Virus record (IMG/VR): IMGVR_UViG_3300035191_000049
Source of the DNA: a virus
Length of the DNA stretch: 30,165 nt
Strand: one strand, 5' to 3'
Shown here piece by piece: positions 1 through 21,876 of the stretch. The position numbers and the translations under genes are program-made. The notes under the pieces were generated by a model, which saw only the letters and a list, made by a program, of their open reading frames with translations, searched no databases and had not been told where the DNA came from. How positions within the stretch are numbered: the stretch's first letter is position 1; each line of letters starts with the position of its first letter.

Positions 1-16
1 TTTTTTCGACAACACG

Positions 17-1267
17 ATGCCAGACGTTATCATCAACTTCGATGGGTACCGCGTCGAGATGCTCGAATCGATCGACCCGCGGGTCGCCTTCTTTGATGAC
101 ATCTTTGATTGGTCGGTTTCTGGTTCGAGCCGCCCCGAATACGCCTGGGACACCATAGAAAGTCCCCACGCTCGCCTCTATCTCGTCTCCAAAGTTGAAA
201 AGAGGCGAAACAAACCCGTTGCCATCGCGTGGGCCTGGCGAACTCAGGGGGTCTACGAAGAGGTAGAGGGCGGAACGAGGCCGGGCGGAACTCGTATGGA
301 GATGGTCGAGGTCGAGCCCGGACCCATCGTCGTCATCGACGCGGTCCAGACCATCTACAGGACGCGCAAGGCTAACGTGAAGATCTTGAAGGCGATCGAG
401 GCGCTGGCTCATGCGATGCTCGAAAACGAAGAGACTATCACAGAGGTGCGCATTCAAAACGACGAGCTGAGTTCCTACGAAGTTCAGGAATATCTTTCTT
501 CGCCCTATGCCAGCCCGTGGAAGAAAGTAGGCGACGAGAGCGTGTGGCGTGAAGAGATGCACAAACACCCGCAGATCGATAAGTTTGGCCAGGGGTGGAT
601 GCAGACCCAGTGGCTCCTTGCATCACGCGAATCACCAGACGAGAACCCGCAAGAGTGGAAATGCCCGCTCCGCACCGAGATGTACGGCGGCATGCCTGAG
701 GGCGGCAACTTCGGATCCGCAACCATGCTGGAGCTGGGCGCCCAGAACATCGCTGAGGCTGCTCACTGCATCCTTGGCTCTCTCGGAAAGCTGACCAGGC
801 GAGGAGACTCAGGGCAAGACGAGTGGGCGAGGTGGCAGTATTCCCTTGTCTACGAGGTGGCCCATCTCAAAGAGGAGCTGGGCATCATCAACATGTGGGT
901 GTGGAAGTGGTATGAGTACGGCTGGCATCGGGATACTCAGGAGAAATTCAACGACCCGACGCCGGACCAGCTCCCCTACGTCGAGAGATCAGTCGAGAAC
1001 ATCCGAGACGTTGCTCCTCCGCTGGTCGTTCTCGCCGAGCTGAAGCGCGCTCATGTCGAAGCGCAGGAAGACATGCCTGAGCCGATCAAGGCGGCGGCGC
1101 TTTCCTCCTACGACGTAATCATCGCCGTCGCAAACGCTGTTTTCGACGCTGTCGAGGGCTGGCCAGAGGAAAAGGTCTACAACCCCTTCACGGTTACGCC
1201 CCTTCAGGCGGCGACACAGCGGCTCGGAGAGACCATAAATGAGCTACTAACCTACGTGAGGCGATGA
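17..1267 (+). CDS. hypothetical protein (416 aa)
   Basis: ATG at 17 directly after a T-run. Long ORF with GC-rich third codon positions. TGA at 1265-1267 sits one nt before the next ATG. No motif I can name. Confidence 0.6.
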   Translation: MPDVIINFDGYRVEMLESIDPRVAFFDDIFDWSVSGSSRPEYAWDTIESPHARLYLVSKVEKRRNKPVAIAWAWRTQGVYEEVEGGTRPGGTRMEMVEVEPGPIVVIDAVQTIYRTRKANVKILKAIEALAHAMLENEETITEVRIQNDELSSYEVQEYLSSPYASPWKKVGDESVWREEMHKHPQIDKFGQGWMQTQWLLASRESPDENPQEWKCPLRTEMYGGMPEGGNFGSATMLELGAQNIAEAAHCILGSLGKLTRRGDSGQDEWARWQYSLVYEVAHLKEELGIINMWVWKWYEYGWHRDTQEKFNDPTPDQLPYVERSVENIRDVAPPLVVLAELKRAHVEAQEDMPEPIKAAALSSYDVIIAVANAVFDAVEGWPEEKVYNPFTVTPLQAATQRLGETINELLTYVRR

Positions 1268-1268
1268 G

Positions 1269-2225
1269 ATGTCCTTCGATTTGAAGATTGAATGCGACGG
1301 CAATGAATACGACGCCACCATTGATGATGATGGCGACCTGCTCATCTTCGAGTACGATGCCTCCGAAGACGAGACGCTCGCCGAGATGGGTTATGAGCCC
1401 ACAGAATGCATGATGCTTTCGACGGGTTGGAAAGACTTCCGTGCGCTGCTGGAGAAGGACGGTCAGTGGGAAGACTTCATGGACGGCGTCACCGGCGCCG
1501 AAACAACGTTCGAGCTTGACGGTGAGGAGTTCACGGAACGATACGACATGGAGTTTGACGAGTTTCTGGACTACTTGACTACTTTCCTCAAGAAGTCCCT
1601 GGAAGATTTTGACAGCAGAAGCAGGAGTATCGCTCGCATCATCGGAGCGCTTTCGGACAGCTATGGGATCAGCATCGTTCTCCACTCGGTGCATGTTGAG
1701 GACCCTTCCCGGATACTGGAAGATGTCAGTCTTCAGCACATCCCTGAGATTTTTGAGAACGAGCTTGTTATCAACGATAAGTCGATAGCGAAGTGGAAAC
1801 GCGGATCGGCCCTGATCACCAACGACGTAATCGACTTGTACTACACCGAGCACGACATGGGGGAGTATGACGACGACTACAGGCCCCCAGGGATGTGGCC
1901 AGACTTCTGGACTATGGATAACAAAAACGACATGGATCACGTGCTCGCGAGCTTTGGCCTCGAAGACCAAGTCCCGCCACTACCAGAGCGCCCATGGGTT
2001 CCGGAGAAAGATCCCGATGGTCCGTATGGTGTCGAGTTCGTCGACTACTATTGGGACCAGCATGCGCAGGGTGGCAGAGAAATCAACACGACGGTCTGGT
2101 ATCCCGACCTGGAGTCAGCGAAGCGCCATTTCGAGATCGTCACGGACATCGGAACAGCAAACCAGCAGACGGAGGGTTTTCGAGTGATCGATCGAGAGGG
2201 AGAAATTGTCGCTTGGCATTTGTAG
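1269..2225 (+). CDS. paralog family member 1 (318 aa): shared N-terminal module + unique C-terminal region
   Basis: N-terminus FDLKIECDGNEYDATIDDDGDLLIFEYDASEDETLAEMGYEPTEC aligns with the N-termini of 2654-3418, 3421-4149, 4149-4982, 4985-5791 and the reverse gene 24688-24999. GTGAGG SD upstream. GC3-rich. Confidence 0.75.
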   Translation: MSFDLKIECDGNEYDATIDDDGDLLIFEYDASEDETLAEMGYEPTECMMLSTGWKDFRALLEKDGQWEDFMDGVTGAETTFELDGEEFTERYDMEFDEFLDYLTTFLKKSLEDFDSRSRSIARIIGALSDSYGISIVLHSVHVEDPSRILEDVSLQHIPEIFENELVINDKSIAKWKRGSALITNDVIDLYYTEHDMGEYDDDYRPPGMWPDFWTMDNKNDMDHVLASFGLEDQVPPLPERPWVPEKDPDGPYGVEFVDYYWDQHAQGGREINTTVWYPDLESAKRHFEIVTDIGTANQQTEGFRVIDREGEIVAWHL

Positions 2226-2234
2226 GAGAGTTTC

Positions 2235-2657
2235 ATGACGACATACGACTACGTCACCGAGTTTGATCCTGGTTTCAACGAGGGGAAGGTTCGATACGCG
2301 GCCCCCACTCACGTCCTTCAGGTCTATGGGACGCCAACGGAAGCGCGCAAGTACATCGCTGAGGAGTTTGGGCTTCCAGCGATCCCGCCGCCTGTCACCG
2401 TGCTTCCTCCTTACGATATTCGCAGCGGCCCCACGCGCACGTTGACGGTCGTTCCCCCTGGCTCAGTTCCAGGCGACCTGATCTCACAGCCCACCATGTG
2501 GAAGCAGATCGTCCCGGCGACGGGACTCGAAGGCTTCGGCACTGTTGCCAGTGGCAACGGCTCTGGCAACGGTTGGTTTCTCACAATTGGCGCGATCATT
2601 GGAGGATTCGTCCTCGCTCGCGTCGCGGCGGCGATGCTCGAACGGCGGGAGCGATGA
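2235..2657 (+). CDS. small hypothetical protein with C-terminal hydrophobic helix (membrane-anchored?)
   Basis: ATG 2235 preceded by GGAGAG (2224-2229). C-terminus GWFLTIGAIIGGFVLARVAAAML is TM-like. It interrupts the paralog array. Confidence 0.6.
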   Translation: MTTYDYVTEFDPGFNEGKVRYAAPTHVLQVYGTPTEARKYIAEEFGLPAIPPPVTVLPPYDIRSGPTRTLTVVPPGSVPGDLISQPTMWKQIVPATGLEGFGTVASGNGSGNGWFLTIGAIIGGFVLARVAAAMLERRER

Positions 2658-3418
2658 AGTCGAAGACCTTCGAGTTGGTCTGTGACGATGAGCGTCACAC
2701 CTTCATCCTCTACGAAGACGGGTCCATGGAGATTGAGAACTTCGACGAGGAAGAAGCCGAGACGCTTCGAGAGATGGGGTATCGAGAAGACTGTCTGTTT
2801 ACGCTTGAAGACTATCAGAATCGGCCCCTTCGATTCCTCGTTATTTTCTCGACCTATTTGTGTGGCGAAAAGCTTCGGCTGCTGCTTCACGGCATGATCG
2901 CAGAGTATTTTTACATGGTCCGAGAGGCGGTCCCGACGGACATGGCGAACCATCTCGAAAGAATGATGAATGTCATCGAGGAGGGCGACGGTTACAAAAG
3001 AGGCGATTGGGTCTGGGCAAAGAAAATGATCCGCAACTGGACTCAATTGAAAAAAGAAGCGCGGTGGCGCAGAGAGGACAAGGCCATGTATCCCACAGTC
3101 GTCGTGGGGCGAGGGCCTGACCCTGAGGTGGAGCGCCGTGTTCAAAAGATTTGCCTAACGATCATTTCTTTGTACGTCAGAAGCAGCAAGGGGGCGTTGG
3201 ATTGTGGGCAGTCTGCGGCGAAACGCATTGATGCATGGGACAATGTAGAGGAAATCGTACATAGGATAAGAGAGGTCGCCAGAGAACTTGCTGTCGATGA
3301 AGTCGTGGAAGCGGGCGGCGGTCTCAATGATATCGGTGACGTCAGGGAAGAGTCTTTCGAGGAATTTAATAGAGAGATTTTTGAAAAAGCTCTCAACATC
3401 ATCTTCGAGGAGGACTGA
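2654..3418 (+). CDS. paralog family member 2 (254 aa)
   Basis: ATG 2654 overlaps the upstream stop (ATGA). N-terminus KTFELVCDDERHTFILYEDGSMEIENFDEEEAETLREMGYREDC. The ORF-track start 2498 is a frame extension overlapping gene 2235-2657. Confidence 0.7.
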   Translation: MKSKTFELVCDDERHTFILYEDGSMEIENFDEEEAETLREMGYREDCLFTLEDYQNRPLRFLVIFSTYLCGEKLRLLLHGMIAEYFYMVREAVPTDMANHLERMMNVIEEGDGYKRGDWVWAKKMIRNWTQLKKEARWRREDKAMYPTVVVGRGPDPEVERRVQKICLTIISLYVRSSKGALDCGQSAAKRIDAWDNVEEIVHRIREVARELAVDEVVEAGGGLNDIGDVREESFEEFNREIFEKALNIIFEED

Positions 3419-3420
3419 CG

Positions 3421-4149
3421 GTGCCGGTTTCGATCACTATCTACTGCGACGACGAGCGTCAGGACGTCATCATCTATGAGGACGGATCCTTCGAGTTCGT
3501 GGGCTACGACTTCAGCGAGGACTTGACGCTCGAAGAGCTTGGATATGAGCCCTCGGATTGCCTGAGCGCGGCAAGGGAACTTGAAGGCGACATGGTCAAC
3601 TTTCTCCTGGGGTCGTGGACGGGCCTCGCATTCAACGCCGGCATCGAAGACATTCCTGGGACGGCCGTCGAATACGTCCTCGACTGCTTTGCTCACGTCG
3701 CTCAGCAGTTTGGAGAGGCGGTTCCAGATTTCAAGTGGGTGGCTGGGGATGTCATAACGATAGCGCGTGCTCACAACATGAACGTCGACAACGTCGAGCT
3801 GGAAGAGAGCATGTGGATTCGTGCCGACCTGATGCTGAAGTGGTTGCGTCAGTATGGTGTGCGCAGCGAGCCGGTTCCTTACGACCGCGAAGAGATGGAA
3901 AAAGTCCTCAATGAGTACATCGTCCTGCTCAAGGATTTTCTCAAGTACATCCTGAACGAGGACAACCTGCTAGAAGACATGGCCAGCGGAGACATTGATA
4001 CGACCGTCAGCCAGCTTCGTATCATCATGTCGGACTATGCCAGGGCCACTGGAGACCTCGAAGACCCGACCGCCAGCGAGATCGAAGAGGTCGAGTTCCG
4101 AGAGGAATCGTGGCAGCTCGCTCGGCTCTTGCAGTATTTGGAGGCGTGA
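3421..4149 (+). CDS. paralog family member 3 (242 aa)
   Basis: GTG start with strong SD GAGGAGGA upstream. N-terminus VSITIYCDDERQDVIIYEDGSFEFVGYDFSEDLTLEELGYEPSDC. Confidence 0.75.
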   Translation: MPVSITIYCDDERQDVIIYEDGSFEFVGYDFSEDLTLEELGYEPSDCLSAARELEGDMVNFLLGSWTGLAFNAGIEDIPGTAVEYVLDCFAHVAQQFGEAVPDFKWVAGDVITIARAHNMNVDNVELEESMWIRADLMLKWLRQYGVRSEPVPYDREEMEKVLNEYIVLLKDFLKYILNEDNLLEDMASGDIDTTVSQLRIIMSDYARATGDLEDPTASEIEEVEFREESWQLARLLQYLEA

Positions 4150-4982
4150 TGTCAGTGATCGTTCCTGTGAACTGTGAGAATACTCAGATCGAGATCGAAT
4201 TCTTTGAACACGGGAGCTTCGACGTTCACGGCTACGATATCGAAGAAGCCAAAGTGCTCGAAGAGATGGGCTACGACACACCCGAGTGTCTTGCGTTCCT
4301 TCGGAGGTTGAGCCAAAGGACACTCCGGTTTCTCCTCAAGCGGGTGCCACTCGACCCCTACGAGCTGATGATTACCTACCTGCTCGACTGCCTGCAGCAC
4401 TCCGCGGACTACGCCGAGTTCGATGAGTTCATCCCCTGGATGGATCAGGTTGCCGAGGCGATCCGGGAACTGGGGACTGAGGGAGAGCCCCTGCAAGGCG
4501 AGCTGTATGAGGAAGCTATCGGCCAGTACCGAAAGTTCAAGGAGTGGTGGACGCTCGAATATGGTGATTACATCTCTGGCGAAAGAGCAATTCAGAGTGG
4601 TTTTCGTGAATATGGGGGTCAAGAATTTGACGGGAACTACATGGCCTACCTCAACGACATAGTAAAGGCACACCTTCGATGGATCTTGGGGATGGCGATC
4701 GATCAAGACCCCAAGCGCGCGTGGGACCCAGGCGGCATGGGCTTTCCCAAGCTCTACCATTTCGTTGACGCCATGGCCAAGGGTGCCTCTTATTTTAGGG
4801 TATTCAAGGAATACCCAGAAATCACATGGGAGGATACTCTTGTCTACGAAGAGGGCATTTGGTTTCCGGCAACGGATGCTCCTCAGACTGCACAAACAAT
4901 CGATTTTCACGAACGCTTTTTCCCCGAGGAGCGCGCCTGGCAGATTGGCCGCTACGTCAAGTATCTTGAAGGCACGGAGTAG
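4149..4982 (+). CDS. paralog family member 4 (277 aa)
   Basis: ATG 4149 overlaps the TGA of the previous gene (TGATG). N-terminus VIVPVNCENTQIEIEFFEHGSFDVHGYDIEEAKVLEEMGYDTPEC. The segment after the module (RTLRFLLKRV...ITYLLDCLQH) also resembles members 2 and 3. Confidence 0.7.
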   Translation: MSVIVPVNCENTQIEIEFFEHGSFDVHGYDIEEAKVLEEMGYDTPECLAFLRRLSQRTLRFLLKRVPLDPYELMITYLLDCLQHSADYAEFDEFIPWMDQVAEAIRELGTEGEPLQGELYEEAIGQYRKFKEWWTLEYGDYISGERAIQSGFREYGGQEFDGNYMAYLNDIVKAHLRWILGMAIDQDPKRAWDPGGMGFPKLYHFVDAMAKGASYFRVFKEYPEITWEDTLVYEEGIWFPATDAPQTAQTIDFHERFFPEERAWQIGRYVKYLEGTE

Positions 4983-4984
4983 CC

Positions 4985-5791
4985 ATGGAGTGCATGTTCA
5001 AGGTCGGTGATGACTACGTCGGCATCGAGATCGACGACGAGGGGAATCTTCTCATCGACCAGGACGACATCGAGGAGGCAGTCGTTCTCGCCGAGATGGG
5101 CTACCCCATGAGTGACCTTGTCAAGTTCTACGACGCCTGGGCTCACCTCGAATACAACGAGCGCTGGAAGATCGTGAACCGCGGCGGCGATTTCGCGACG
5201 AGCGGCGATATTGGTGCGCTCCCTGTCTACAGCTATCTCAACGCGGAGCAGCGAGCGTGCCTCTCACTGAGTCTGACCGAGAAAGACAGGGCCGACGCTG
5301 CGCTCTATGCCGACAACCTCAACCCAGAGCTTCGTCTTCAGATGATCGAGAGCATCGGGACGGATGAAGCGTGGTCGAACTTTCTGGGCGAGTACCGATT
5401 CCTCGACGAGCAGCGACAGCGACAGCTCATCGACCAGCTCGCTCCCGAGTGGAAGGGCTGGCTCGCCCGCAAGGCGCGGGTGCTGACATATCCTCATCGT
5501 TTTGAGCTGATACTTGAAGCCCCGGACGGCGAGAAGATGGAGTTCCTGCAGACGCAGCAGTGGCTGACGCAGAACCAGCAGTTCGTCCTGATCAACTCAC
5601 TGGAGGACGAAGAATCTCTCTTCCACGTGCTCAGGTTGCCGCTCCAGCTCGCGATCACCTCTGACCAGAGGTTCGCCTTCGCCGATGCGATCGAGGACCC
5701 AGGACTGAGGGAAGAGCTGGCCCGCGTAGCGCCAGGACTCACTGATCAGCAGCGGGCTCTTCTGATCGATCCTGAGCTTGAGCCTCTTTGA
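4985..5791 (+). CDS. paralog family member 5 (268 aa, degenerate module lacking both Cys)
   Basis: N-terminus KVGDDYVGIEIDDEGNLLIDQDDIEEAVVLAEMGYPMSDL aligns with member 1 (DDDGDLLIFEYDASEDETLAEMGY). Its 3' end overlaps the convergent MTase gene by 53 nt. Confidence 0.7.
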   Translation: MECMFKVGDDYVGIEIDDEGNLLIDQDDIEEAVVLAEMGYPMSDLVKFYDAWAHLEYNERWKIVNRGGDFATSGDIGALPVYSYLNAEQRACLSLSLTEKDRADAALYADNLNPELRLQMIESIGTDEAWSNFLGEYRFLDEQRQRQLIDQLAPEWKGWLARKARVLTYPHRFELILEAPDGEKMEFLQTQQWLTQNQQFVLINSLEDEESLFHVLRLPLQLAITSDQRFAFADAIEDPGLREELARVAPGLTDQQRALLIDPELEPL

Positions 5792-6485
5792 TTCGCCGTG
5801 TAGAAACTTCGATCGCTTCGTCGCAAATATCACTTCCGCAGAAGATGCGCCCCAGCTCGACAGCCGCGACGCCGGCCGAGCCGCTCCCGCAGAAGGGGTC
5901 GCAGACGACTTCGCCAGGCTCAGTGCTTTGGCTGATGAGCGTCCGGAGGACGGGGACTGGCTTCTCGGTGGGGTAGCCCTTGTAGATGCGTTTCTCTCTG
6001 ATGACGTCTGGAATGGAGAGGTCGTTGAGCTTTCGCTTTCCTTTTTCGAAGAAGAGGATCAGTTCGTACCGGGCTCTGTAGTGATAGCCCATGCCGATGG
6101 CGACCTTATCCCATACGAGCGGCTTGTGGAACGTGAACCCGGCCTCTTCGGCGATCGGCTTTGCCACAAACATCGTTTCCTGGTCACAGAACAGGTAGCA
6201 ATGTGAATCCATCCTGAGGACGCGGTACAGTACTCTGAACAGATCATCGAAGCGTGAGTTTGGGAAGATTTGAAACCAGTCATTTGAAGAGGATTTCGAG
6301 TGGCTGAGCCTGGTCGTTGTCCCTTTTGCTCGGTGTTTCTCCAGTGATTCGTAGGGAGGGTCGGTCACGACGAGGTCGACCGATTCGTCCTCAAGACTTC
6401 CCAAAAAGTCAAGCGCATCCTGCTTAACGACCTGTGAAGTGACAAATCGCGGTCCCCCGCGAAAAAAGAGCGGTTCCTGTTTCAT
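5739..6485 (-). CDS. DNA methyltransferase, beta-class amino-MTase (N6-adenine or N4-cytosine), 248 aa
   Basis: Motif IV VVTDPPY comes before motif I VVCDPFCGSGSAGVAA. DPPY before FxGxG defines the beta class. Start set at internal Met 6483-6485 (MKQEPLFFRGG...). The 581-aa ORF-track version has an R/G/P-rich N-terminal extension overlapping the + gene 6573-7334. Confidence 0.8.
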   Translation of the reverse strand: MKQEPLFFRGGPRFVTSQVVKQDALDFLGSLEDESVDLVVTDPPYESLEKHRAKGTTTRLSHSKSSSNDWFQIFPNSRFDDLFRVLYRVLRMDSHCYLFCDQETMFVAKPIAEEAGFTFHKPLVWDKVAIGMGYHYRARYELILFFEKGKRKLNDLSIPDVIREKRIYKGYPTEKPVPVLRTLISQSTEPGEVVCDPFCGSGSAGVAAVELGRIFCGSDICDEAIEVSTRRIKEAQAQDRSEEPAADQ

Positions 6486-12018: not shown

Positions 12019-12501
12019 ATGGGCTATCGAACCACCAAAATCGAAACCCCCATGCTCGTCAAACGCTGGTGGGCTCGGCCCGTCTGCTGGTTTATCGGTC
12101 ACAAGTGGTATGTGCTCGGCATCAACATGGGGAAGAACGCCGGGCTCTCGCACCTCCATCCAGACGCCGGCATCGACAAGTTCTGCACCCGTTGCGGAGC
12201 CGAATGGTACGACGGCAAAATGGTGACCGATGGCTTCCAACGCGCGCCTCGCGACAAAGAACCCATCCCCCCGAAGAAGAAGCTGAAGAAGCCGGTTATC
12301 AAGAAGCCGAAGCGTCCGAAGCGTCCAAAGCGTCCGAAGCCACCGACGAGCCCATGGAGGATGAAGATGCGTCCGAAGACGAGCCCATGGAGGATGAAGA
12401 TGCCTCCGAAGCCGCCTATGCCGAAGATGCCAAAGATGCCGAAAATGTCTGACTTTGGTGGCGGCATCTTTGACTCCACCATATTCGACAAGGACGATTA
12501 G
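12019..12501 (+). CDS. basic K/P-rich repeat protein (160 aa) with N-terminal CxxC domain
   Basis: ATG follows the upstream TAG directly. The C-terminal half is encoded by DNA tandem repeats (PKRPKRPKRPK, 2x TSPWRMKM, 3x PKM). GC3 analysis favours this frame over the acidic overlapping frame 12069-12452. Confidence 0.55.
   Translation: MGYRTTKIETPMLVKRWWARPVCWFIGHKWYVLGINMGKNAGLSHLHPDAGIDKFCTRCGAEWYDGKMVTDGFQRAPRDKEPIPPKKKLKKPVIKKPKRPKRPKRPKPPTSPWRMKMRPKTSPWRMKMPPKPPMPKMPKMPKMSDFGGGIFDSTIFDKDD
12307..12449 (+). repeat. in-frame tandem repeats (4 x 9 bp CCGAAGCGT-like; 2 x 33 bp GACGAGCCCATGGAGGATGAAGATGCGTCCGAA; 3 x 9 bp ATGCCGAAG)
   Basis: Direct repeats are visible in the sequence. The repeat unit boundaries are approximate. 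Confidence 0.7.
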
Positions 12502-12503: not shown

Positions 12504-13001
12504 ATGACGACGGAAAAAGAAAAGAACAGCGACATCGCGATGCCTGAAAGAATCTTTCAGCGCACCGTCTCCATCTTGACAAACGAACGCATCACAACCG
12601 TTACGTCGTCCTCTGACCAGGGGGGATCGTCCGGAGGATACTTCGGTGGCTCCATGCTCTTTACCAATCCCCAGATCGTCAAGAACGCACATGACGCCGT
12701 CTCCTACCTTCGGACATACCTGACAGGAGACCTCTCCGCGCTTCCTGAGACTCGCTCTATCGATCGCGACGAGATGATCGGCGAGAAAGAGACGGCGCGG
12801 GGAGTATCGATACGCACCGGGAGAAACGGCTACATCGTCGAGCCCCACTTCAACAACGGACATGGCTGGATCAAGTCGATAGGAGACGAGGTCGTCTTCA
12901 CCGATCTGACCGATATGCTCAAGTTCTGTATGGACCACCTCGAAGGCAAGCCAGGAACCGCCTGGTGGGACTGGGAGGGCGAGAAGATATGGACAAAGTA
13001 A
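12504..13001 (+). CDS. hypothetical protein (165 aa)
   Basis: GC3-rich ORF. G/S-rich linker SSDQGGSSGGYFGGS. Confidence 0.6.
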   Translation: MTTEKEKNSDIAMPERIFQRTVSILTNERITTVTSSSDQGGSSGGYFGGSMLFTNPQIVKNAHDAVSYLRTYLTGDLSALPETRSIDRDEMIGEKETARGVSIRTGRNGYIVEPHFNNGHGWIKSIGDEVVFTDLTDMLKFCMDHLEGKPGTAWWDWEGEKIWTK

Positions 13002-13615
13002 AAGTCGGCGTAGCAGCCATCATCGAGCGCGACGGCAAGATCCTCATGGGCCAGAGGAAAAACTCACACGGGGCCGGCCGCTGGTCCTTTCCAGGTGGAC
13101 ACATCGAGCCCGGTGAGACGCCAGAGCAGGCCTGCGAGCGCGAGGCAATGGAGGAGACGGGACTGCGGTTGCTCAACATTCGCCGTGGCCCATGGACCAA
13201 CGATATCTTTCTTGCAGAGAAGAAGCACTACATCACCCTGTTCCTCTTTGCCGATGCAGAAGGCACGCCTGCGCTTCGAGAACCTGATAAGTGCGCAAAA
13301 TGGCTCTGGGTTGAAAAGGACAACATTCCATTTCCCCAGTTTCTCCCCGTTTTCAATCTGATGAAGGAACACCCTGACATCCTTGGAAAGCAGCCGGATG
13401 GTGTCTCCGACGACGCAGGTGTCCCCGTTGAGATCCAAAGGGGGCTCCAGTCCAATGCCGATAAGCTCGATGCGATGGGCGGGACCTGTCCGGAGTGCCA
13501 GATCACCGCGGACATGTTCCGATACCTTCCCGTCGCCAACTACTTCAACCTCGGCACCAGATGCACGGGGACATGCAAGACATGCGGCATAGGCCCATGG
13601 GAGGAAATACTGTGA
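12989..13615 (+). CDS. NUDIX hydrolase with C-terminal Cys4 zinc-ribbon-like extension
   Basis: Perfect Nudix box GGHIEPGETPEQACEREAMEETGL (G-x5-E-x7-REUxEExGU). C-terminus has CPEC...CTGTCKTC. Start ATG 12989; GTG 12965 is also possible. Confidence 0.8.
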   Translation: MDKVKVGVAAIIERDGKILMGQRKNSHGAGRWSFPGGHIEPGETPEQACEREAMEETGLRLLNIRRGPWTNDIFLAEKKHYITLFLFADAEGTPALREPDKCAKWLWVEKDNIPFPQFLPVFNLMKEHPDILGKQPDGVSDDAGVPVEIQRGLQSNADKLDAMGGTCPECQITADMFRYLPVANYFNLGTRCTGTCKTCGIGPWEEIL

Positions 13616-14442
13616 GCGAGACAGAAAAACCACGCATTCAAGAGATGATCGCAGTCCATCTCATCAGCGACAAGGAGGGGAGCCCGGCTCATGGCTGGGT
13701 TCATACCCATGGGCTCGACAAGTTCGGGCTCCCCGAGCTGGAGATTCGCGGGCTCCAGACGTTTCTCTACGGGATGGCTGGCAGCATCCTTAATCAGGTC
13801 GGCGAGTACATGATCGAGCTGAAAGAGGAGGGGCGAGCCATCAATCTCGGTGAGTCCATGCAGCTCGGAGACAAGTTCTGCATCTTTCAGTTCGCCAAGC
13901 TCCCTCCTATCGAAGGTCATGAGCACCACTACGAAGTCGAGCGCTGGTGTCTCGTCGAGCCCCCTGGAGCGCACGATTTCTGCGAAGGCTGCAAGACAGG
14001 ACCACTCTCCTATGAGCACGGGGAGGAAGCCTGTGACTGCGGGCAGTGCGGCTGCAACCACGGGGTCGACGAAGAGCAGAAGATGGAGGTCGAGTTTCTC
14101 GACGCGGTGGGTGAAAAAATACCCTACCACGCCATGGAGGCGATTGCTGCCTGGACGCTAGCCGACCCCCAGGCTGCCTTCGCAATGCTTATCGATCGAC
14201 TCGATGAGAAGGGAATGGCTACCATCGAAGTGGTCAGCGATGAAGAGAAGTACGTGAGACTCACCGATCGCGTCAAAGAGGCCATCGAAGCCGGTAAGTC
14301 CTCTGACCTCATCGATGAGATCCTCGACGGCTGGAAGCACCAGAAGCATGTCGAGGCGATCCAGGGCGAGGAGTTCTGCGAAATGCCCGTCTCTGGGCGC
14401 GTTGCCAAGCTCGTCGAGCTGTTCGGCGAGACTCCGTTATAA
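13612..14442 (+). CDS. hypothetical Cys/His-rich protein (276 aa)
   Basis: GTG 13612 overlaps the upstream TGA. Motif HGWVHTHGLDKFGLPELEIRG is loosely reminiscent of SUFU-like domains, from memory and unverified. Cys cluster CEGCKTG...CDCGQCGCNHG. Confidence 0.55.
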   Translation: MSETEKPRIQEMIAVHLISDKEGSPAHGWVHTHGLDKFGLPELEIRGLQTFLYGMAGSILNQVGEYMIELKEEGRAINLGESMQLGDKFCIFQFAKLPPIEGHEHHYEVERWCLVEPPGAHDFCEGCKTGPLSYEHGEEACDCGQCGCNHGVDEEQKMEVEFLDAVGEKIPYHAMEAIAAWTLADPQAAFAMLIDRLDEKGMATIEVVSDEEKYVRLTDRVKEAIEAGKSSDLIDEILDGWKHQKHVEAIQGEEFCEMPVSGRVAKLVELFGETPL

Positions 14443-14906: not shown

Positions 14907-15194
14907 ATGTCGCTCGGCGAAGCAAAGATGGCAGCGCTCTGCGCGCTCAAAAACTGTGGCGAACAGGATGGTCGATTTCAGACCTATGGACACCTCGCTG
15001 GCTGGGTCGTTGACGAGTTCGATTACAAGGATCGACTTGTGTCCGAATTTCTCAACTGGTGTGTATGGCGCAAGATTACGAAGCCCACACGGTTCGACCG
15101 TCCTGACGATGGAAAACGTGTGAGCGGTTACGAGATCGATTTTCAGCAGATCGAACGAGCGCTCGAATTTCTGGAGGCGAAAGCACATGCCTAA
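14907..15194 (+). CDS. hypothetical protein (95 aa)
   Basis: G-rich SD then ATG 14907. GC3 bias. Confidence 0.55.
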   Translation: MSLGEAKMAALCALKNCGEQDGRFQTYGHLAGWVVDEFDYKDRLVSEFLNWCVWRKITKPTRFDRPDDGKRVSGYEIDFQQIERALEFLEAKAHA

Positions 15195-17724
15195 GATCGT
15201 TGGAGTCAGAGAGAGCTGCTGCTGGCGCCCCATTTTCGACACATGGTTCGATGGGGGCTGCGTCATCCCCGAGCATTTTCGCGATGCGGCCAAGGCGCTC
15301 ACAGAGCACGAGGGGAACTCCGACTACGAATGCACCAGCGACGACTGGTTCAAATACCTGCGCTTCTATATCGACGGGCCGAACGACAACATGGCCAAGG
15401 ACACCGAAGAGTTTATCGTCTGGTGTCAACACGTCGGCATCTTTACCGTCAGGGTCGAAGCTATGAAGCCGGCCGTCTTGGAGCTGAACAAAAAGCAACT
15501 CGACTCGATGATCTACGACCAGAATGTGCTTGTCGTCCTGCACCACTTCAGGGATCGCGCCAAGAAAAAATACTGTGGGATGGGGTTTCCGACGGCGAGA
15601 GACATCGCTAGAGAGTACGACTTTGACGCGGACTTCGTCTACTCGGTCATCGTCTGGATGAAGTGCGAAAGCACCTTCAAGCTGAACGGCCAAATTAGAC
15701 CCGACGCTGTCGACAAGCTCATCAGTGACATCGTCAACCGCAATAGATTCCAGAAGCATGAGGAGGAGCCGATGCCTCAAACCGTACAAGAAGAGCTAAC
15801 CAAGCTCCGCCAAGAACAGCTCAGTGCCTTGTGGTGGGTCGCCACCGAGACCAGCAGCGAAGAGACACCGACCTACGCAAAGCCAATGACCCTGAGGCAG
15901 CTCCATAAGCGCCTGCTCCTTACCCGAGCGTTCAAGGGTTCTTCAGATCGAAAGCTCAACGCTTTTATCAACTGGGCGTCGGCTTGCAATAACTTCATCT
16001 ACAAGACGGATGACGAGCTGTACCACATCAACCTCATTTATATCGCACAACACTTCAAGGACAAGGCTCGCTGGTTCGTTCAGCCCTTCTTCCCAAATGC
16101 GCTCATAGGACTCCGATGGATCGCCGAGAAGAACAACTGCGACGAGTTCGACCGCGAGATCGAGTGGTATCACCTGCGCTGCGGTCCATACTTTTCGAAC
16201 CTCGAACAAACGAAGGTCTTTTGTCTCTGGTGCCAGTGGGAAGGCATCCTGCGCCAGAAGACGCCGGGTGTCGTCGCCTTCGTCTATAACGAAGAGCAGC
16301 TCAACCGAGCGCTGGGCGAGTACATGGACGAGCAGAAGCTCAAAGAGGCGACAGAGTGGGATCCCACCGCCTCTGGCGAGCGCTTCCCCGGCGAGGAGAA
16401 AGCTCTTCAGTGGATGGTCGACAACTACGGGGGGTCCTGGATGTTCATCTCGGGCATCACCCAGGGCATCTTCGAGAAGAAGCGCGTACAGGTTCAGAGC
16501 GAAGAGCTTGAGTGGTTGCGCCAGTTCATGACCCGGCGACCTGCCGACCATCCAGAGGGCATGAAAAAGGGCATCGAGTACTTCGGCATCGACTACCAGG
16601 CGGCTGAGAACCGTCTCTATGAGATAGCGGAAACGAGGCAGAAGATGGGCTACAAGCATGAAGACTTCAAAGGTGAGAAGCGTGTCCTTCAGTACCTGCT
16701 CCGAGTACAGGGTAGCTGGCAGGGAGCGGACGCCGACGTGGCCATTCAAAAGGCCATCAAAGGAACGGCTGAGGCGAACGGAATCGACGTAGATCTTTTC
16801 AAGCAGTACAGCCTCGAATTCCCGTGGCTGAACGTCGGTACAGAGAAGACGCGTAAAGAGGACCACATGGGTAACCTCACCCGGAAGAAAGTCAGCGTCG
16901 CGACGGTCGACAAAGATACAATCCGCGAACGTCTCGCTCTCCTCGGTTTTATCGACATCGACGCCGAAATGAAGCCCGAGGTGCAGCTCCGTGCTCTCAT
17001 GATGACGCTGAAGCACGAGAGCGGAAGCAAGACCTGGGAAGACCTCATCAACTGCCCCTGGGACTGTCACATCCAAGCAGCAGGCGGCTACAAGTCCATG
17101 TGGCGCAAGATCGCCCAAGACATGAAGCAGCGGGGCATCATCAAGGTGGTCAGGGAAGCCGGCAAGAAGGGTGACCGGCACAAGGTGGACACTGCTCTGC
17201 TCAAGAATCGAATGGAAGAGCTGCAGCGGGTGATCGAGATGAAGGGCGGTCGGTGCTCAGAGGTTCTGGTTCTGAAGGACCAAGAGTGCGACGACTGCAA
17301 CACCGTGTTCAACCCGAGCGATCCCGGCGTCGAGAGCCAAACATCAGGAGACGGCGACATCTGCCCATCCTGCGAGCAGACTCGCATCGCGGTCGAGATC
17401 GCCGAGCACCGAACGTGGCTCGCGAGCACCTTCAAGACCTCGATGGGTTCTGGACCGCCGCCCGGGGAAGTCGCGGCCTCCATCATATACGGCCATGCGA
17501 CCGCACTCGCTGGCTCCGAGCACATCGCGTGGCTCCAGGAACAGATCCGCAACGCGAAGAAGCTCACTAACGAGCCGACGCGTTACATGCAGTGGATGAA
17601 GGCGTCTGAGCTGCTGAGTCGCGTCGAGTCGCGCGTCAAGGGCGTCAAGGTCACAGAAGACGGACTTCTCCTCTCGAACTACCAACAGGCACGGCTGCGT
17701 CTGGAAGAGATGACAGAGGAGTAG
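15187..17724 (+). CDS. large hypothetical protein (845 aa)
   Basis: Long ORF with consistent GC3 bias. Start overlaps the upstream gene by 8 nt. No catalytic motif I recognise. Several CxxC pairs near the C-terminus (CDDC, CPSC). Confidence 0.7.
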   Translation: MPKIVGVRESCCWRPIFDTWFDGGCVIPEHFRDAAKALTEHEGNSDYECTSDDWFKYLRFYIDGPNDNMAKDTEEFIVWCQHVGIFTVRVEAMKPAVLELNKKQLDSMIYDQNVLVVLHHFRDRAKKKYCGMGFPTARDIAREYDFDADFVYSVIVWMKCESTFKLNGQIRPDAVDKLISDIVNRNRFQKHEEEPMPQTVQEELTKLRQEQLSALWWVATETSSEETPTYAKPMTLRQLHKRLLLTRAFKGSSDRKLNAFINWASACNNFIYKTDDELYHINLIYIAQHFKDKARWFVQPFFPNALIGLRWIAEKNNCDEFDREIEWYHLRCGPYFSNLEQTKVFCLWCQWEGILRQKTPGVVAFVYNEEQLNRALGEYMDEQKLKEATEWDPTASGERFPGEEKALQWMVDNYGGSWMFISGITQGIFEKKRVQVQSEELEWLRQFMTRRPADHPEGMKKGIEYFGIDYQAAENRLYEIAETRQKMGYKHEDFKGEKRVLQYLLRVQGSWQGADADVAIQKAIKGTAEANGIDVDLFKQYSLEFPWLNVGTEKTRKEDHMGNLTRKKVSVATVDKDTIRERLALLGFIDIDAEMKPEVQLRALMMTLKHESGSKTWEDLINCPWDCHIQAAGGYKSMWRKIAQDMKQRGIIKVVREAGKKGDRHKVDTALLKNRMEELQRVIEMKGGRCSEVLVLKDQECDDCNTVFNPSDPGVESQTSGDGDICPSCEQTRIAVEIAEHRTWLASTFKTSMGSGPPPGEVAASIIYGHATALAGSEHIAWLQEQIRNAKKLTNEPTRYMQWMKASELLSRVESRVKGVKVTEDGLLLSNYQQARLRLEEMTEE

Positions 17725-18362: not shown

Positions 18363-18557
18363 GTGAGACAGTGGGTCTACGATGTACAGGACACGGCGAT
18401 TGCTTGGCTCCCGGCAGGATTTCGCCTCTTTTTGGCCATCATCCTCGCTCTGGCCTCTTATCCGACGCCCGAACCGTACAATATGGTGATCCTCATCGCA
18501 GCGGTCGCCGCCCTGACACTCCGCAGTACAAAAACACAAAAATCAAAAGGAGACTGA
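18363..18557 (+). CDS. small membrane protein (64 aa)
   Basis: GTG start after AGGAG SD. Two hydrophobic helices. Confidence 0.5.
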   Translation: MRQWVYDVQDTAIAWLPAGFRLFLAIILALASYPTPEPYNMVILIAAVAALTLRSTKTQKSKGD

Positions 18558-18558
18558 C

Positions 18559-18840
18559 ATGCACCCCGTTACCTTCATCATCAAGACTTCCAAGGGTGAG
18601 ACCGAAGAGAAGAAGTTTTCGATGCCCTTCATTCCGATGCCGATCGGAACCAAGGTCACCTTCACCAAGGACCCCAGGGTGTTCTATGTGGACTCGCTTG
18701 AGTGCGAGACCATCGACTACGGCACCACCGGGAGCGCTCCGTCGAAGGCATCTCAGCGCTTCATCGTCAACGTGAGCGAGGAGAGAGAGGTGCCTGTGGA
18801 GATGAGCTTCAACGGAGAAAGTCGTCCTGGGGACGAATAG
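18559..18840 (+). CDS. hypothetical protein (93 aa)
   Basis: AAAGGAGA SD upstream of ATG 18559. Confidence 0.55.
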   Translation: MHPVTFIIKTSKGETEEKKFSMPFIPMPIGTKVTFTKDPRVFYVDSLECETIDYGTTGSAPSKASQRFIVNVSEEREVPVEMSFNGESRPGDE

Positions 18841-18857
18841 AAGGATCCAGGGGCAGA

Positions 18858-19346
18858 ATGATCACACTGCTGAAAAAGACGGCGCAGTACGCCAAGTACA
18901 TCGCCAAGCACAAATGGTTCGTCTTCGTCGAGTGCGCGAAGATGGGGCTCATTCGCCGAGGGCTTGTCCACGACGCCTCGAAGTTCCTGCCCGATGAGTG
19001 GATTCCATATCAAGACTTCTTCTACGGCAAGAAGAACGATGAGGGATACTTCCACCAGCCGGGTACCGAGGAGGCGTTCGACGAGGCATGGCTCCGTCAC
19101 ATCCACCGCAACCCTCACCACTGGCAGTATTGGTTGCTCCAGCAAGACGACGGGCCGGTTAAGACGCTCAAGATGCCCAGAGAGTTTCTTCTTGAGATGA
19201 TCGCCGATTGGCGAGGCGCCGGCAAAGCCCAGGGCTTCGCTACGATCAATGCCTGGTACGCCAAGCAGCGTGAAAAGATTGTTTTGCACCCAGAATCGCG
19301 GCGCGAGCTGGAGCAGATCCTTCGCGACGCTGGAGAATTGGAATAA
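18858..19346 (+). CDS. conserved-looking phage protein with HD-like motifs (162 aa)
   Basis: Start at internal ATG 18858 (MITLLKK). Motifs GLVHDASKF and HIHRNPHHWQYW. The ORF-track 18702 extension is R-rich. Confidence 0.55.
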   Translation: MITLLKKTAQYAKYIAKHKWFVFVECAKMGLIRRGLVHDASKFLPDEWIPYQDFFYGKKNDEGYFHQPGTEEAFDEAWLRHIHRNPHHWQYWLLQQDDGPVKTLKMPREFLLEMIADWRGAGKAQGFATINAWYAKQREKIVLHPESRRELEQILRDAGELE

Positions 19347-19975
19347 TGACTTTCAGAACGTGGAAAGACCTTCAGGTCGACGTCCCGGAAGGCACCGTCG
19401 GAAAATGGACGGTCGATAGGTGGACACCGGATCCGAACGACATCCACTTCCAGCTCCAGAACATGCGGGACCCCGCTCGTCAAATCCTGCCCGGCTACAC
19501 CTACACTCGCCTGCTTCGGGGCGACAACCCCATCATGACCGACACGCCGGCTGAGCTTAACGACCTGTGGGCTATCCTGAAAAAGGTTCGAGATTCACAA
19601 GAGCCCTCGGTGCTCATCCATGGGCTCGGGCTCGGCTGCGTCCTGAACGGCTGCTTCATCTACGGAGCAAGCAACGTCACCGTTGTCGAGAAGGAAGAGG
19701 ACGTCATCGCGCTCGTCGGCCAGCACTGGCAGGAGCGCTACGCAGACCGCTTGGAGATCATCCACGGCGATGCGTTTACCTGGAAGCCGCCCAAGGGCGC
19801 TCACTGGGACCTTGTCTACCACGACATCTGGGACGATCTGTGCACAGACAACCTGAAGGAGATGTCGAAGCTCCACAGGCGCTTTGGCCGGCGATGCGAA
19901 GAACAGCTCTCATGGTGCCGGGATCTCCTCGAATCCCAGCGGCGACGAAACCGAAGGCGACCGAGCTATTTCTAG
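19346..19975 (+). CDS. class I SAM-binding Rossmann-fold enzyme (methyltransferase / spermidine-synthase-like)
   Basis: Motif I SVLIHGLGLGCVL, acidic beta-2 VTVVEKEED, IIHGDAF and DLVYHDIWDD. This order matches the spermidine synthase / SAM-MTase fold. TAATG overlap with the upstream gene. Confidence 0.55.
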   Translation: MTFRTWKDLQVDVPEGTVGKWTVDRWTPDPNDIHFQLQNMRDPARQILPGYTYTRLLRGDNPIMTDTPAELNDLWAILKKVRDSQEPSVLIHGLGLGCVLNGCFIYGASNVTVVEKEEDVIALVGQHWQERYADRLEIIHGDAFTWKPPKGAHWDLVYHDIWDDLCTDNLKEMSKLHRRFGRRCEEQLSWCRDLLESQRRRNRRRPSYF

Positions 19976-19984
19976 GAGGTCCAG

Positions 19985-20623
19985 ATGTTCACAGAGCGAA
20001 AGAACCACGAGCTAACCCTGCGCAGCTCACACGTCGTCGACGGCGCCCTCGGCGAGTACGGCCACACCGAAATCACCCGCGCCGATAACGAGATGCGGAT
20101 CGTTTGCGGCTCGGACGACAACCCGCACATGTTCGAGAACTTCAGCTCCGACCGCTACGCAATAGTCAACGGGCTGCGGATCATCATCAAGCTCTGGAAC
20201 CCAGAGCAAATACTCACGCTCGTCCGCGGACTCACCGTCGCGCTCTATACCTCAAGGGAACCAAACCCTCTCCGGGCCACTTGGAAGAAAGCGAACCGGC
20301 AGATCTACTTCCCAGGAGGCATTATCCTCGACAAGCGCATGGGGCGGTGGGAGATCGGTGACCACGGAGAGCGAATCTGCAACCTGTGGACGATGGACCC
20401 TGCCGTTATCGACAACGAGACAAGAGTTTGGATCGTGATGACGCTCGACAACGCGGCGCTCGAAGTCTTCCATTCAATTGAGCGCGTTACAAGTCCCGTC
20501 AATCGGTTTGCATCTGTCGAGGTCAAACTGCTCGGTGATGTCATCGAGGAGAAACAGGTTTCGGAGCCCCGGTCTTTGCCCTCAGACCCCGCAGACGACT
20601 CCATGAAAAAACAGGAAGGCTAG
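19985..20623 (+). CDS. hypothetical protein (212 aa)
   Basis: AGGAGG SD upstream. GC3 bias. Confidence 0.6.
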   Translation: MFTERKNHELTLRSSHVVDGALGEYGHTEITRADNEMRIVCGSDDNPHMFENFSSDRYAIVNGLRIIIKLWNPEQILTLVRGLTVALYTSREPNPLRATWKKANRQIYFPGGIILDKRMGRWEIGDHGERICNLWTMDPAVIDNETRVWIVMTLDNAALEVFHSIERVTSPVNRFASVEVKLLGDVIEEKQVSEPRSLPSDPADDSMKKQEG

Positions 20624-20626
20624 CCG

Positions 20627-20713
20627 ATGATACGAAAAGAACTTGAATCATCACACAGCTTCATTCAGGAGATCATGGAGTACTTACGCGGGCAGAAGGA
20701 GAAGGGGGCATGA
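20627..20713 (+). CDS. possible 28-aa micro-ORF (MIRKELESSHSFIQEIMEYLRGQKEKGA)
   Basis: AGGAAGG SD 7 nt upstream. Its stop overlaps the next ATG (ATGA). The 5' half is unusually AT-rich for this genome, so it may be non-coding leader. Confidence 0.25.
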   Translation: MIRKELESSHSFIQEIMEYLRGQKEKGA

Positions 20714-21288
20714 GGAGCATCACCGAAATCAACGGAGAGCGTCATTACAAAGAAGAGCATCCTCCGAACATCAAGCGCATCATCGAGCTACCCTGGGTCG
20801 GCGTCGCCGAGATCGGCATCCGCACCATTCGCCTGCAGAAGCGCTTCGAACGCGTCCTCTTCCCAGACAATCTCCCCGAGATGCTCGAAAGCCAAAGCGT
20901 GCGCTTCAACCAGCTTGAAGGGACCCCATACACCGTCGCTGAGGATTCGCTCCGCATTCACCAGCTCGTCCCCTACCTCATCAGCTCGAAGCACCTAGGA
21001 CTCACTACCCACGTCAAGTTCACGGTCATCATCGGCGACACCTACAGGATGCCCGTCATGCTCGGCCAGGTTGACCAGGGGTGCGGAGGCACCGCGGTTC
21101 ACATGGGTCAGCCGGTCCCGGTTCCTCCGAGACAGCCGCTCGTCGTCGACATCGACTTCGACTGCCGTACCAACTTCGTCCTGGCCAATGCTCTCGGTGA
21201 GATGCTCAAGGATACGAATGCGCGCTTCGCGCTCGGTCTCAGGCTGGTCGGCTTCCAGAGGACGGAGATTCGCCGGGACGAGTGGTAG
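20710..21288 (+). CDS. hypothetical protein (192 aa)
   Basis: Strong SD AAGGAGAAGGGGG. The stop abuts the stop of the convergent gene at 21289. Confidence 0.6.
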   Translation: MRSITEINGERHYKEEHPPNIKRIIELPWVGVAEIGIRTIRLQKRFERVLFPDNLPEMLESQSVRFNQLEGTPYTVAEDSLRIHQLVPYLISSKHLGLTTHVKFTVIIGDTYRMPVMLGQVDQGCGGTAVHMGQPVPVPPRQPLVVDIDFDCRTNFVLANALGEMLKDTNARFALGLRLVGFQRTEIRRDEW

Positions 21289-21876
21289 TCAGCGGACGAT
21301 CCAGGTTGCCAGCGCCAACGGCTGCCAGTTATCGGCGTTCCAGGACTCCAAATTCAGGTCGTGATCCTCGACGGCCTTTTCTATATCCGCTGGCCCCACC
21401 TCTCCCGGCCAGTCATGCACGCTCACGACGCTCCCCGGGGCCATCAGCGGAACGAACGTGTAGAACTCCCATTTCTTAGAGCCGTTGTCACAGTAGAGGT
21501 AGGCCGGTTCGGTTCCCAGTGCCTCGATCACCTGAGGCTTGCCAATGTCAGAAAAAATGTCAGTCCAGTGCGTCTGTATCCCGAGCGCATCGTAGATGGG
21601 CTTCGCCCCGTCGTCGATGTTGTGCTCCTTGTTAAAGGGAAAAGAATCCTGGTCGAAGGTGTGCATCGGAATGCCGAGCCTCACGGCCCACAGACCGAGA
21701 TAGATCGACATTGCACCCATAGACGTTCCAAGCTCGACGATCGACCGAATCTGCCTGTTCTCGTGCAAGAGCACACTGAGCTGATGGTAAAGCGCGAAGG
21801 CGTGCTGAGCGCGCTGTCCCGCAAAGAGTTTTTCGTAGCCAAAGGTCGTTACTGAATCCGTCAACGCTGCCTCCAT
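21289..21876 (-). CDS. class I SAM-dependent methyltransferase, TylF/CmcI-like (195 aa)
   Basis: Motif I IVELGTSMGAMSIYLG follows the IvE.G...G.S pattern of TylF/CmcI O-MTase-like enzymes. GC3-rich on the minus strand. The divergent region upstream carries palindrome site 4. Confidence 0.6.
   Translation of the reverse strand: MEAALTDSVTTFGYEKLFAGQRAQHAFALYHQLSVLLHENRQIRSIVELGTSMGAMSIYLGLWAVRLGIPMHTFDQDSFPFNKEHNIDDGAKPIYDALGIQTHWTDIFSDIGKPQVIEALGTEPAYLYCDNGSKKWEFYTFVPLMAPGSVVSVHDWPGEVGPADIEKAVEDHDLNLESWNADNWQPLALATWIVR

Follow-up and report, generated by a model that had tools for sequence, protein, structure and literature searches.

We focused on a tandem gene array in a stretch of viral DNA of 30,165 nucleotides (IMG/VR virus record IMGVR_UViG_3300035191_000049), which is referred to as the window here. 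Between positions 1269 and 5791, five plus-strand genes, named members A to E, encode proteins that have an N-terminal module of about 50 residues in common and differ in the regions that follow it (Table 1). The genes are closely packed, with stops and starts that overlap or lie 1 to 9 nt apart, and a GGAG-type Shine-Dalgarno sequence is found 5 to 9 nt ahead of each of the five starts. A nonmember, gene X, is inserted between A and B, and the array ends with E, whose 3' end overlaps that of a convergent DNA methyltransferase gene by 53 nt. When genes of the array were compared with their orthologs on a related contig (L001), the ratio of nonsynonymous to synonymous substitution rates (dN/dS) ranged from 0.06 to 0.13 (0.07 for A) and was alike for module and remainder, showing that these are real genes under purifying selection. 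Gene X is 95% identical at the amino acid level in the related contig, within the range of 86 to 95% seen for A, X, and C, the neighbors of member B. Member B itself, with only 61% amino acid identity to its ortholog (L001 1789-2553), has evolved faster than the genes on either side of it.

The relationship of the five N termini was apparent at several levels. Over the first ∼50 residues, pairwise blastp comparisons gave 31 to 48% identity across 23 to 108 amino acids. A profile built from the five modules and run against the 568 six-frame open reading frames (ORFs) of the window retrieved A to E only, at 72 to 93 bits, the next ORF scoring 4.6 bits. In leave-one-out profiles, the omitted member was recovered at 46.9 (A), 42.2 (B), 58.2 (C), 49.9 (D), and 28.6 (E) bits, compared with at most 7.0 bits for any nonmember ORF of the window. 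Isolated 52-residue modules scored 31 to 65 bits, while the maxima of 1,000 composition-preserving shuffles per member were 9 to 14 bits. Together, the leave-one-out and shuffle controls show that acidic composition is not the cause of the similarity, and the alignment of the five N termini, first proposed in a first-pass annotation made from the sequence alone, withstands the permutation check run for A to E. An explanation by chance, or by a compositional artifact of acidic low-complexity N termini, could appeal to the abundance of Asp and Glu in the module and to the five false positives among the 46 database matches described below. It is refuted by the scores just given, by the near invariance of G22, D30, G41, and C47 in 131 modules, by cysteines that are lost together, and by an AlphaFold2 fold that is the same in two contexts, with a predicted local distance difference test score (pLDDT) of 89 to 97; we leave it next to no weight.

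Downstream of the module, Smith-Waterman z scores are ∼0 for all pairs of A to E except C and D (z = 3.1). The description of the C termini as unrelated is therefore correct at the sequence level, with this one pair as the exception. The module cores of A to E are 61 to 76% identical at the DNA level, which indicates old copies kept by protein-level selection and rules out recent gene conversion of the module.

Two other elements of the first-pass annotation did not stand up. A sixth, stand-alone copy of the module had been placed in the reverse gene at 24688-24999 (−). This gene scores 1.1 to 1.3 bits (E = 11 in the window), which 3.9% of its own shuffles equal, has no match at E <= 1 with a 40-sequence profile, and reaches a profile-profile probability of 1.2% against the module alignment. 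It is a conserved gene of 101 to 103 amino acids, with orthologs of 82 to 100% identity on contigs of up to 123.6 kb. The dedicated promoter element said to adjoin the array was not recovered either, as a scan for the σ70 consensus, the sole promoter type tried, gave no promoter-like site in the five genes or at their head. Two consensus matches were found versus 3.0 expected, one at 6-33 (+), far upstream in another gene, and one at 6522-6493 (−), upstream of the methyltransferase start. Internal promoters and terminators in the array stretch were not above chance.

The window captures the 3' end of an array about four times larger than the first-pass annotation could show. A JGI contig stretch (L005), located via P0023, a relative of A, is 100% identical over positions 18442-21080 to positions 1-2639 of the window, and this identity extends the window by 18.4 kb upstream. 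The module profile matches 17 consecutive plus-strand genes of L005, 11 of them at 40 to 76 bits and 6 at 16 to 28 bits. The six weaker members keep the core "EE..VLEEMGY"; one of them is the 561-aa protein whose gene runs into the window and whose module core reads ...EEALVLEEMGYPLP... (16.2 bits, E = 1.5e-4). Taken together with B to E, the L005 genes form an array of ∼21 co-directional, tightly packed members over ∼24 kb, interrupted solely by two genes for MoxR ATPases, one for a DUF2201 vWA protein, and gene X. The five paralogs first described are real, but their count was an artifact of the window. Contigs of up to 165.6 kb carry members of the window's genome. One module gene of the Imm5 type, P0013 (L007/L008, from the samples of the window's contigs), stands alone outside the arrays, which shows that not all members are in the main array; two NUDIX genes adjoin it, a DnaJ-domain gene is near, and P0013 is also present on a 182.8-kb contig.

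TABLE 1 Genes of the array and contigs carrying related arrays (positions refer to the window unless a locus is named; for contigs, the length is given)
Feature	Position or length	Strand	Description
3' part (416 aa) of 561-aa family member	17-1267	+	Module upstream of window; full gene is L005 18023-19708
Member A, 318 aa	1269-2225	+	Module is aa 1-53, nt 1269-1427
Gene X, 140 aa, nonmember between A and B	2235-2657	+	Hydrophobic C-terminal membrane anchor
Member B, 254 aa	2654-3418	+	Module is nt 2654-2815
Member C, 242 aa	3421-4149	+	GTG start; module is nt 3421-3579
Member D, 277 aa	4149-4982	+	Module is nt 4149-4307
Member E, 268 aa	4985-5791	+	Last array gene; module is nt 4985-5137
Convergent N6/N4 DNA methyltransferase	5739-6485	−	PF01555, E 1.4e-30; gene call in L002
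MoxR-type AAA_5 ATPase	L005 1375-2955		Intact Walker A and B
MoxR-type AAA_5 ATPase	L005 2952-4415		Intact Walker A and B
DUF2201_N + DUF2201 (vWA) metallopeptidase	L005 5299-6888		Intact HExxH and metal ion-dependent adhesion site (MIDAS) DxSxS
Contig ENA k141_1130832 = JGI Ga0180433_10000161	143.6 kb		GC 0.47; 63 nonredundant module genes in 41.7 kb, mostly ankyrin
Contig L010	290 kb		GC 0.60; 10 module genes; MoxR ATPase and DUF2201 protein at head
Contig L011	270 kb		GC 0.47; 16 module genes; DUF2201_N upstream, convergent methyltransferase at end
Contig L016	47.5 kb		GC 0.545; 15 module genes; order as in L010/L011; last member with ankyrin repeats
Contig L017	100.8 kb		GC 0.485; 7 module genes; ATPase-vWA-array-methyltransferase order

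An exhaustive HMMER search with the five-module profile against 1.84 billion cluster representatives yielded 46 matches at E <= 1e-3. Five of these are long repetitive or acidic proteins and were removed as false positives, leaving ∼41 true members: A, C, a truncated B, close orthologs of D and E, and ∼36 further proteins of 150 to 360 amino acids. In all of the further members except P0029 (residues 86-130), the module starts at residues 1 to 9, so the module does recur elsewhere, mostly at the extreme N terminus and with different C termini. A word-indexed protein search returned C itself and an 86% relative only, and both contigs reproduce the gene order. All instances of the family come from phage-like metagenome contigs. 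No member turned up in GTDB (185,579 prokaryotic species, each represented by a single genome; two alignments), and three module alignments had no relatives among IMG/VR viral contigs. Among GenBank phages (50,697 records), a megablast of 25 kb had no match, and tblastn with C, two module consensus sequences, and an 845-aa ORF of the window gave nothing useful. A JGI metagenome scan gave nothing with an alignment of window-class modules and, with an alignment of CHHC-class modules (both classes are described below), only the ankyrin-rich genome again.

Related arrays vary widely in size (Table 1). The largest, with 63 copies (JGI 45,374-87,111; loci L003, L009, and L012-L014), is made of two convergent blocks of 32 and 31 genes. 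The ∼2 kb between these blocks hold one gene of the DUF5662 type and one of the T5orf172/MUG113 type; the window has a DUF5662 gene of its own at 18843-19346. In the window's genome, L010, L011, L016, and L017, the genes follow the same order of ATPase, vWA-peptidase, array, and convergent methyltransferase, the last of these at 16328-17119 in L011, from 20471 in L016, and at 18670-19359 in L017. The module proteins of these five syntenic genomes are 20 to 40% identical, and their G+C contents range from 0.47 to 0.60.

The consensus of the module is h.h.C.G..h.h.h.DDG.h.h..[HY]D[IL]EEE..L.EMG[YF]..S.C, and across 131 nonidentical modules the most conserved positions are G41 (96%), D30 (94%), C47 (84%), G22 (81%), and C9 (73%). 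C9 and C47 go together, with both present in 96 modules, C9 only in 0, C47 only in 4, and neither in 4, counts that are inflated by shared ancestry. H14 and H29 co-vary as well. A class with C9-H14-H29-C47 (CHHC) comprises 54 of the 131 modules, next to 5 CHCC modules, and is mostly fused to ankyrin repeats. The window's members fall in a C-x-[Y/F]-C class with the combinations C-Q-Y-C, C-Y-Y-C, C-I-Y-C, and C-H-F-C, while both conserved cysteines are absent from E; the C-H-H-C ligand set of a zinc knuckle is not complete in any window member. This pattern suggests a candidate four-ligand metal (zinc) site in the CHHC class and hydrophobic packing in its place in the window class. Given that the two histidines are replaced by hydrophobic or aromatic residues, the window-class module is probably a metal-free derivative.

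For full-length C, AlphaFold2 placed strands at residues 3-9, 12-18, and 24-26 and a helix at 31-39, with a pLDDT of 90 to 97 over the module. The module alone gave the same fold at a pLDDT of 89.5, with a second helix at 46-54. According to these models, the module is a predicted domain of ∼50 residues with three strands and two helices. The remark that it is not a described domain agrees with our searches, which gave no match for it in Pfam, NCBIfam, PHROGs, PADLOC, PDB sequences, or PDB folds. Hints of a beta-grasp, ferredoxin, or ubiquitin-like relationship (E 0.06 to 0.8) were discarded, since the order of secondary structure elements does not fit. Two arrays contain modules that stand alone or nearly so, P0049 (L003 10001-10270, 89 aa) and L011 15502-15717 (71 aa). 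This indicates that the module is probably an autonomous unit and suggests that it can act alone, e.g., as a competitor or regulator.

In contrast to the module, the C termini of the family form at least 21 BLAST clusters, of which more than 15 are unclassified. Ankyrin repeats are found in 12 of the ∼40 family representatives and in most genes of the 63-copy array (e.g., by Pfam on P0009 and P0024). A C-terminal DUF5983 domain is present in the BLAST cluster of P0015, P0018, and P0021 (34.1 bits for P0018, cutoff 27), and P0014 and P0030 match the same model weakly. P0042 scores 23.4 bits against Imm5_like (cutoff 25), and the remaining C termini of the family have no Pfam match. Within a test set of 20 proteins (16 from the upstream array of the window's genome, 3 from L011, and 1 from L016), 4 match Pfam Imm5 (PF14423) and 3 match Imm5_like (PF21805); three module genes of L011 have precomputed Imm5/Imm5_like matches. 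An Imm5-type C-terminal profile, from which the module was removed, matches L005 11083-11808 (1e-9) and 16198-16938 (1.5e-9), with D marginal at E 0.027 and C not matched (E 1.0). The array opens with two DUF5983-like genes, recognized by a weak Pfam match (E 0.006) and a BLAST link to P0018, and no Pfam ankyrin match occurs among the members of the window's genome (five in the window and 16 upstream).

For A to E and X, no match was found in Pfam, PHROGs, NCBIfam, or PADLOC. The C terminus of A forms a subfamily of its own with P0011 and P0023, E is near P0006, and the relatives of B amount to its own ortholog. The AlphaFold2 model of member C, obtained from a 25-sequence alignment (pLDDT 81.4, predicted TM score 0.80), has a predicted eight-helix domain after the module that appears to resemble DUF416 (3f7c, 2q9r) and SsdAI (PDB 7jtu_B) at 6 to 10% sequence identity. 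Judging from these matches, the classifiable payloads are nonenzymatic and belong to immunity or binder families or to families found beside toxin genes; in E. coli, for example, DUF5983 genes immediately follow those for CbtA toxins.

Module classes and payload types are found in mixed combinations, with a CHHC module joined to an Imm5-like region in P0042 and a C..Y..C module joined to ankyrin repeats in P0041. This argues for domain shuffling and not for divergence alone, and the idea that an unchanging N-terminal module is joined to differing payloads is supported by the recurrence of the module and by the diversity of the C termini. Alternatively, the proteins could be a fast-diverging paralog family without any module-payload logic, of which the N terminus is the most constrained part and whose members may be clients or cofactors of the MoxR-vWA pair in assembly. 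C and D, which can be aligned over ∼100 N-terminal residues and both carry the C-terminal motif "E..WQI..Y..YLE", would be expected in such a family, and several array members of the window's genome are Imm5-like, so that many C termini may be one diverged helical fold. The module DNA identities given above likewise point to old duplications rather than to recent cassette exchange, and purifying selection is similar on module and remainder. We nevertheless regard this explanation as unlikely, because folds differ across the family (ankyrin, DUF5983, and Imm5-like, each supported separately by Pfam), module subclasses and payload types are mixed, and lengths run from 71 to 561 aa.

The genes at the head of the array have features of their own. 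The tandem ATPases of L005 (1375-2955 and 2952-4415) are extended at the N terminus by long regions; a "GMGAIQPSEAQLF"-like motif occurs three times in the first ATPase, and the second has a hydrophobic, membrane-like segment (WWFWVGIGVGVGAGIYFV). The vWA-metallopeptidases have low-complexity interdomain linkers, which are Glu/Gly/Pro-rich in L005 (5299-6888) and (GQ)n/Pro-rich in L010 (5497-7401). The PHROGs label for the vWA-metallopeptidase family, "HNH endonuclease," looks like a misannotation. The nearest relatives of the L005 ATPase are phage MoxR-like ATPases of 22 to 27% identity that are likewise paired with a DUF2201 vWA gene, which supports a viral origin and shows that the pair also exists without the module family. 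More generally, we infer from gene content and architecture that the genomes carrying these arrays are those of phages.

Our tentative preference, which we put at somewhat less than an even chance, is that the array is a phage library of immunity-like binders with a common handle, a reading suggested by the domains found in the payloads. Its members would be stoichiometric binders or inhibitors that neutralize diverse toxins and defense effectors of hosts or competitors, a viral counterpart of bacterial polyimmunity loci, and the constant module would be the handle that gives them one shared property. As a role for the handle, we would favor docking to the MoxR AAA+ ATPase/vWA (MIDAS) metallopeptidase pair at the head of the array, for which synteny is the sole basis. 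MIDAS sites of vWA proteins bind acidic ligand residues and pass substrates to MoxR ATPases, as in CbbQO and RavA-ViaA. Since vWA co-chaperones recognize acidic residues and the most conserved surface features of the module are acidic, the pair is a candidate docking partner of the module, and its invariant acidic surface, made up of D30 and the EEE helix, could plausibly serve as the ligand of the MIDAS. In a more specific version, the payload of each paralog would seize a different host defense or toxin protein and the acidic module would present it, via the vWA MIDAS site, to a shared MoxR/vWA unfoldase or protease, to be remodeled or destroyed, much as poxvirus ankyrin/F-box adaptors feed the SCF ligase; we find this version distinctly unlikely. 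Of the analogies drawn in the first-pass annotation, an anti-defense array seems to fit best. Polymorphic effector sets fit worst, given that the payloads are immunity- or binder-like with no toxin gene nearby, and an alternating pattern of toxin and immunity genes is found neither in the window nor in L005.

Several observations weigh against the binder library. Members A to E have no sequence match to Imm5, ankyrin, or DUF5983 models (none at E <= 1 for Imm5), neither the subfamily of A nor E has a PDB sequence match, and A, B, and E are without an assignable fold. Profile-profile comparisons among the C-terminal groups gave no pair above 53% probability. Pfam and precomputed annotations revealed no toxin domain in either the window or L005, and no toxin or known defense gene is adjacent. 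As for the proposed partner, the MoxR/DUF2201 pair is widespread among phages without the module family (such as N4-like phages, cyanophages, and phage G), and none was seen in the ∼45 kb examined on the contig of the 63-copy ankyrin array. Conserved gene order in one phage lineage may be all that the linkage reflects. Finally, no capsid or terminase genes were seen in the available stretches.

The position of the module also brings to mind packaged or ejected internal proteins, another analogy drawn in the first-pass annotation. The module would then be a prohead-targeting element or a propeptide, cut by the vWA-metallopeptidase or a prohead protease, and the payloads would be injected with the DNA, as for T4 IPI, IPII, and IPIII and for giant-phage ejection proteins. 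Such proteins are compatible with anti-defense payloads, so this explanation and the binder library are not mutually exclusive. Consistent with it, the module is at the extreme N terminus in nearly every member, the internal proteins of T4 share a capsid-targeting sequence on divergent proteins and vary between related phages (PMC9026906), and a virion-assembly role has been proposed for the MoxR/vWA pair (PMC7824862), which heads the array in five genomes. However, the T4 signal consists of 10 unstructured residues, unlike the predicted folded domain of ∼50 residues with its conserved Cys and His and a pLDDT of 89 to 97. Moreover, stand-alone modules exist, 21 to 63 different proteins would be an unusual number to package, the array lies among accessory genes (methyltransferases, NUDIX, and macro) and not among head genes, and no conserved cleavage motif can be distinguished in the Glu-rich sequence. 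On balance, we hold internal proteins to be a rather unlikely explanation, though the main rival. A tentative lead in its favor is that the starts of ankyrin-class members, MKTY(E/S)IEC, may resemble the targeting sequence of T4 IPIII, MKTYQEFIAE.

The ankyrin-rich genome raises the question of effectors that manipulate the host without being aimed at its defense, be it a eukaryotic host of the bacterium, as for the "ankyphages" of symbionts, or a bacterium that is taken over, with the module as a secretion or localization signal. The huge ankyrin expansion in this one genome would fit, as ankyrin is typical of eukaryote-targeting effectors, and there are NCBIfam matches to Legionella Ank effectors, which are at the repeat level only. 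Against this, the five window members and 16 upstream members lack Pfam ankyrin, payloads of the Imm5 and DUF5983 types suggest a connection with bacterial toxins, and the module is acidic and folded, without signal peptide character. We judge host manipulation of this kind very unlikely.

The rest of the window contains further genes of note. A 160-aa ORF at 12019-12501 (+) has a strongly basic, proline-rich C-terminal half with the short tandem repeats KRPKRPKRPK, TSPWRMKM (twice), and PKMPKMPKM, and long ORFs overlap it both in alternative frames and on the complementary strand. An accessory stretch comprises 12965-13615, 13615-14442, 19346-19975, 21289-21876 (−), and 22898-23440. Its products include a NUDIX hydrolase (E 3.8e-25), a DUF4026_C protein, and a methyltransferase (phrog_15480, E 3.6e-32), with a weak match to Methyltransf_24 and a macro-like domain below the cutoff (E 6.7e-4). 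These accessory genes are consistent with a host-takeover or counterdefense region. Neither Pfam nor PHROGs gave a match for two long ORFs, at 15187-17724 (845 aa) and 24968-26998 (676 aa), and the 845-aa ORF had no tblastn match in GenBank phages.

If the binder library is real, a lineage of large uncultivated phages would devote 15 to 30% of its genome to a diversifying set of immunity-like binders, a new domain family would be added, and the concept of polyimmunity would reach the viruses of bacteria. Dozens of the array proteins could also be screened directly as candidate inhibitors of defense effectors and bacterial toxins, and the MoxR/vWA linkage offers a testable hypothesis for a widespread and unexplained phage gene pair. 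If the products are internal proteins instead, the arrays would encode the largest known protein set with a common targeting element. A constant adaptor joined to a variable binder is, as an architecture, already known; in the databases and literature searched, the domain, the family, its scale in phages, and the linkage to MoxR/vWA are new.

The genes at the array head have counterparts in described phages, as Iyer et al. (2021; PMC7824862) proposed a role in virion assembly and proteolytic processing for a MoxR ATPase and a vWA-metallopeptidase of jumbo phages. The same two genes as in jumbo and N4-like phages, MoxR and DUF2201_N/DUF2201, head the array in five genomes, where the Walker, HExxH, and MIDAS motifs are intact. 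Phages described so far carry the pair but not the module family, and the functional link to the array is inferred solely from synteny. SsdAI, DUF416, and Imm5 may be comparable to the window's proteins at a distance, with 6 to 10% identity, A to E below the Pfam thresholds, and no cognate deaminase or toxin detected nearby. In the ankyrin/PRANC families of poxviruses, a constant F-box-like C-terminal domain plugs into eukaryotic SCF ubiquitin ligases. Like the array, these families combine a small constant adaptor with variable ankyrin or other binders and have expanded in tandem copies; unlike in poxviruses, the module is N terminal, structurally unrelated, and from a prokaryotic virus, and the shared partner would be a hypothetical one. 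The internal proteins IPI, IPII, and IPIII of T4 resemble the array in that a constant N-terminal element is placed on unrelated small proteins, whose complement differs from one related phage to another, and IPI* is an anti-restriction protein. Their signal is a cleaved propeptide of 10 residues, whereas the array element is a predicted fold of ∼50 residues that is present in 21 to 63 copies per genome and also occurs alone.

The polyimmunity loci of bacteria provide the comparison on which our preferred reading draws. Zhang, de Souza, Anantharaman, Iyer, and Aravind (2012; PMC3482391) described Imm5 as a domain that confers immunity to CdiA-CT toxins and DYW-type deaminases and ankyrin repeats ("Imm-Ank") as another immunity domain, both of which are found in tandem polyimmunity loci. 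These loci are long tandem series of functionally equivalent nonenzymatic binders with mixed folds, including the Imm5 type and ankyrin, that need no adjacent toxin, and the array would resemble them in these respects. The window's genome has 21 co-directional paralogs, with immunity-type domains in some members only. Polyimmunity loci are located on bacterial chromosomes, whereas the arrays are on large phage-like contigs and none was found in the GTDB species genomes. The array further differs by the additional N-terminal module on every member and by the MoxR/vWA pair and the methyltransferase that bracket it.

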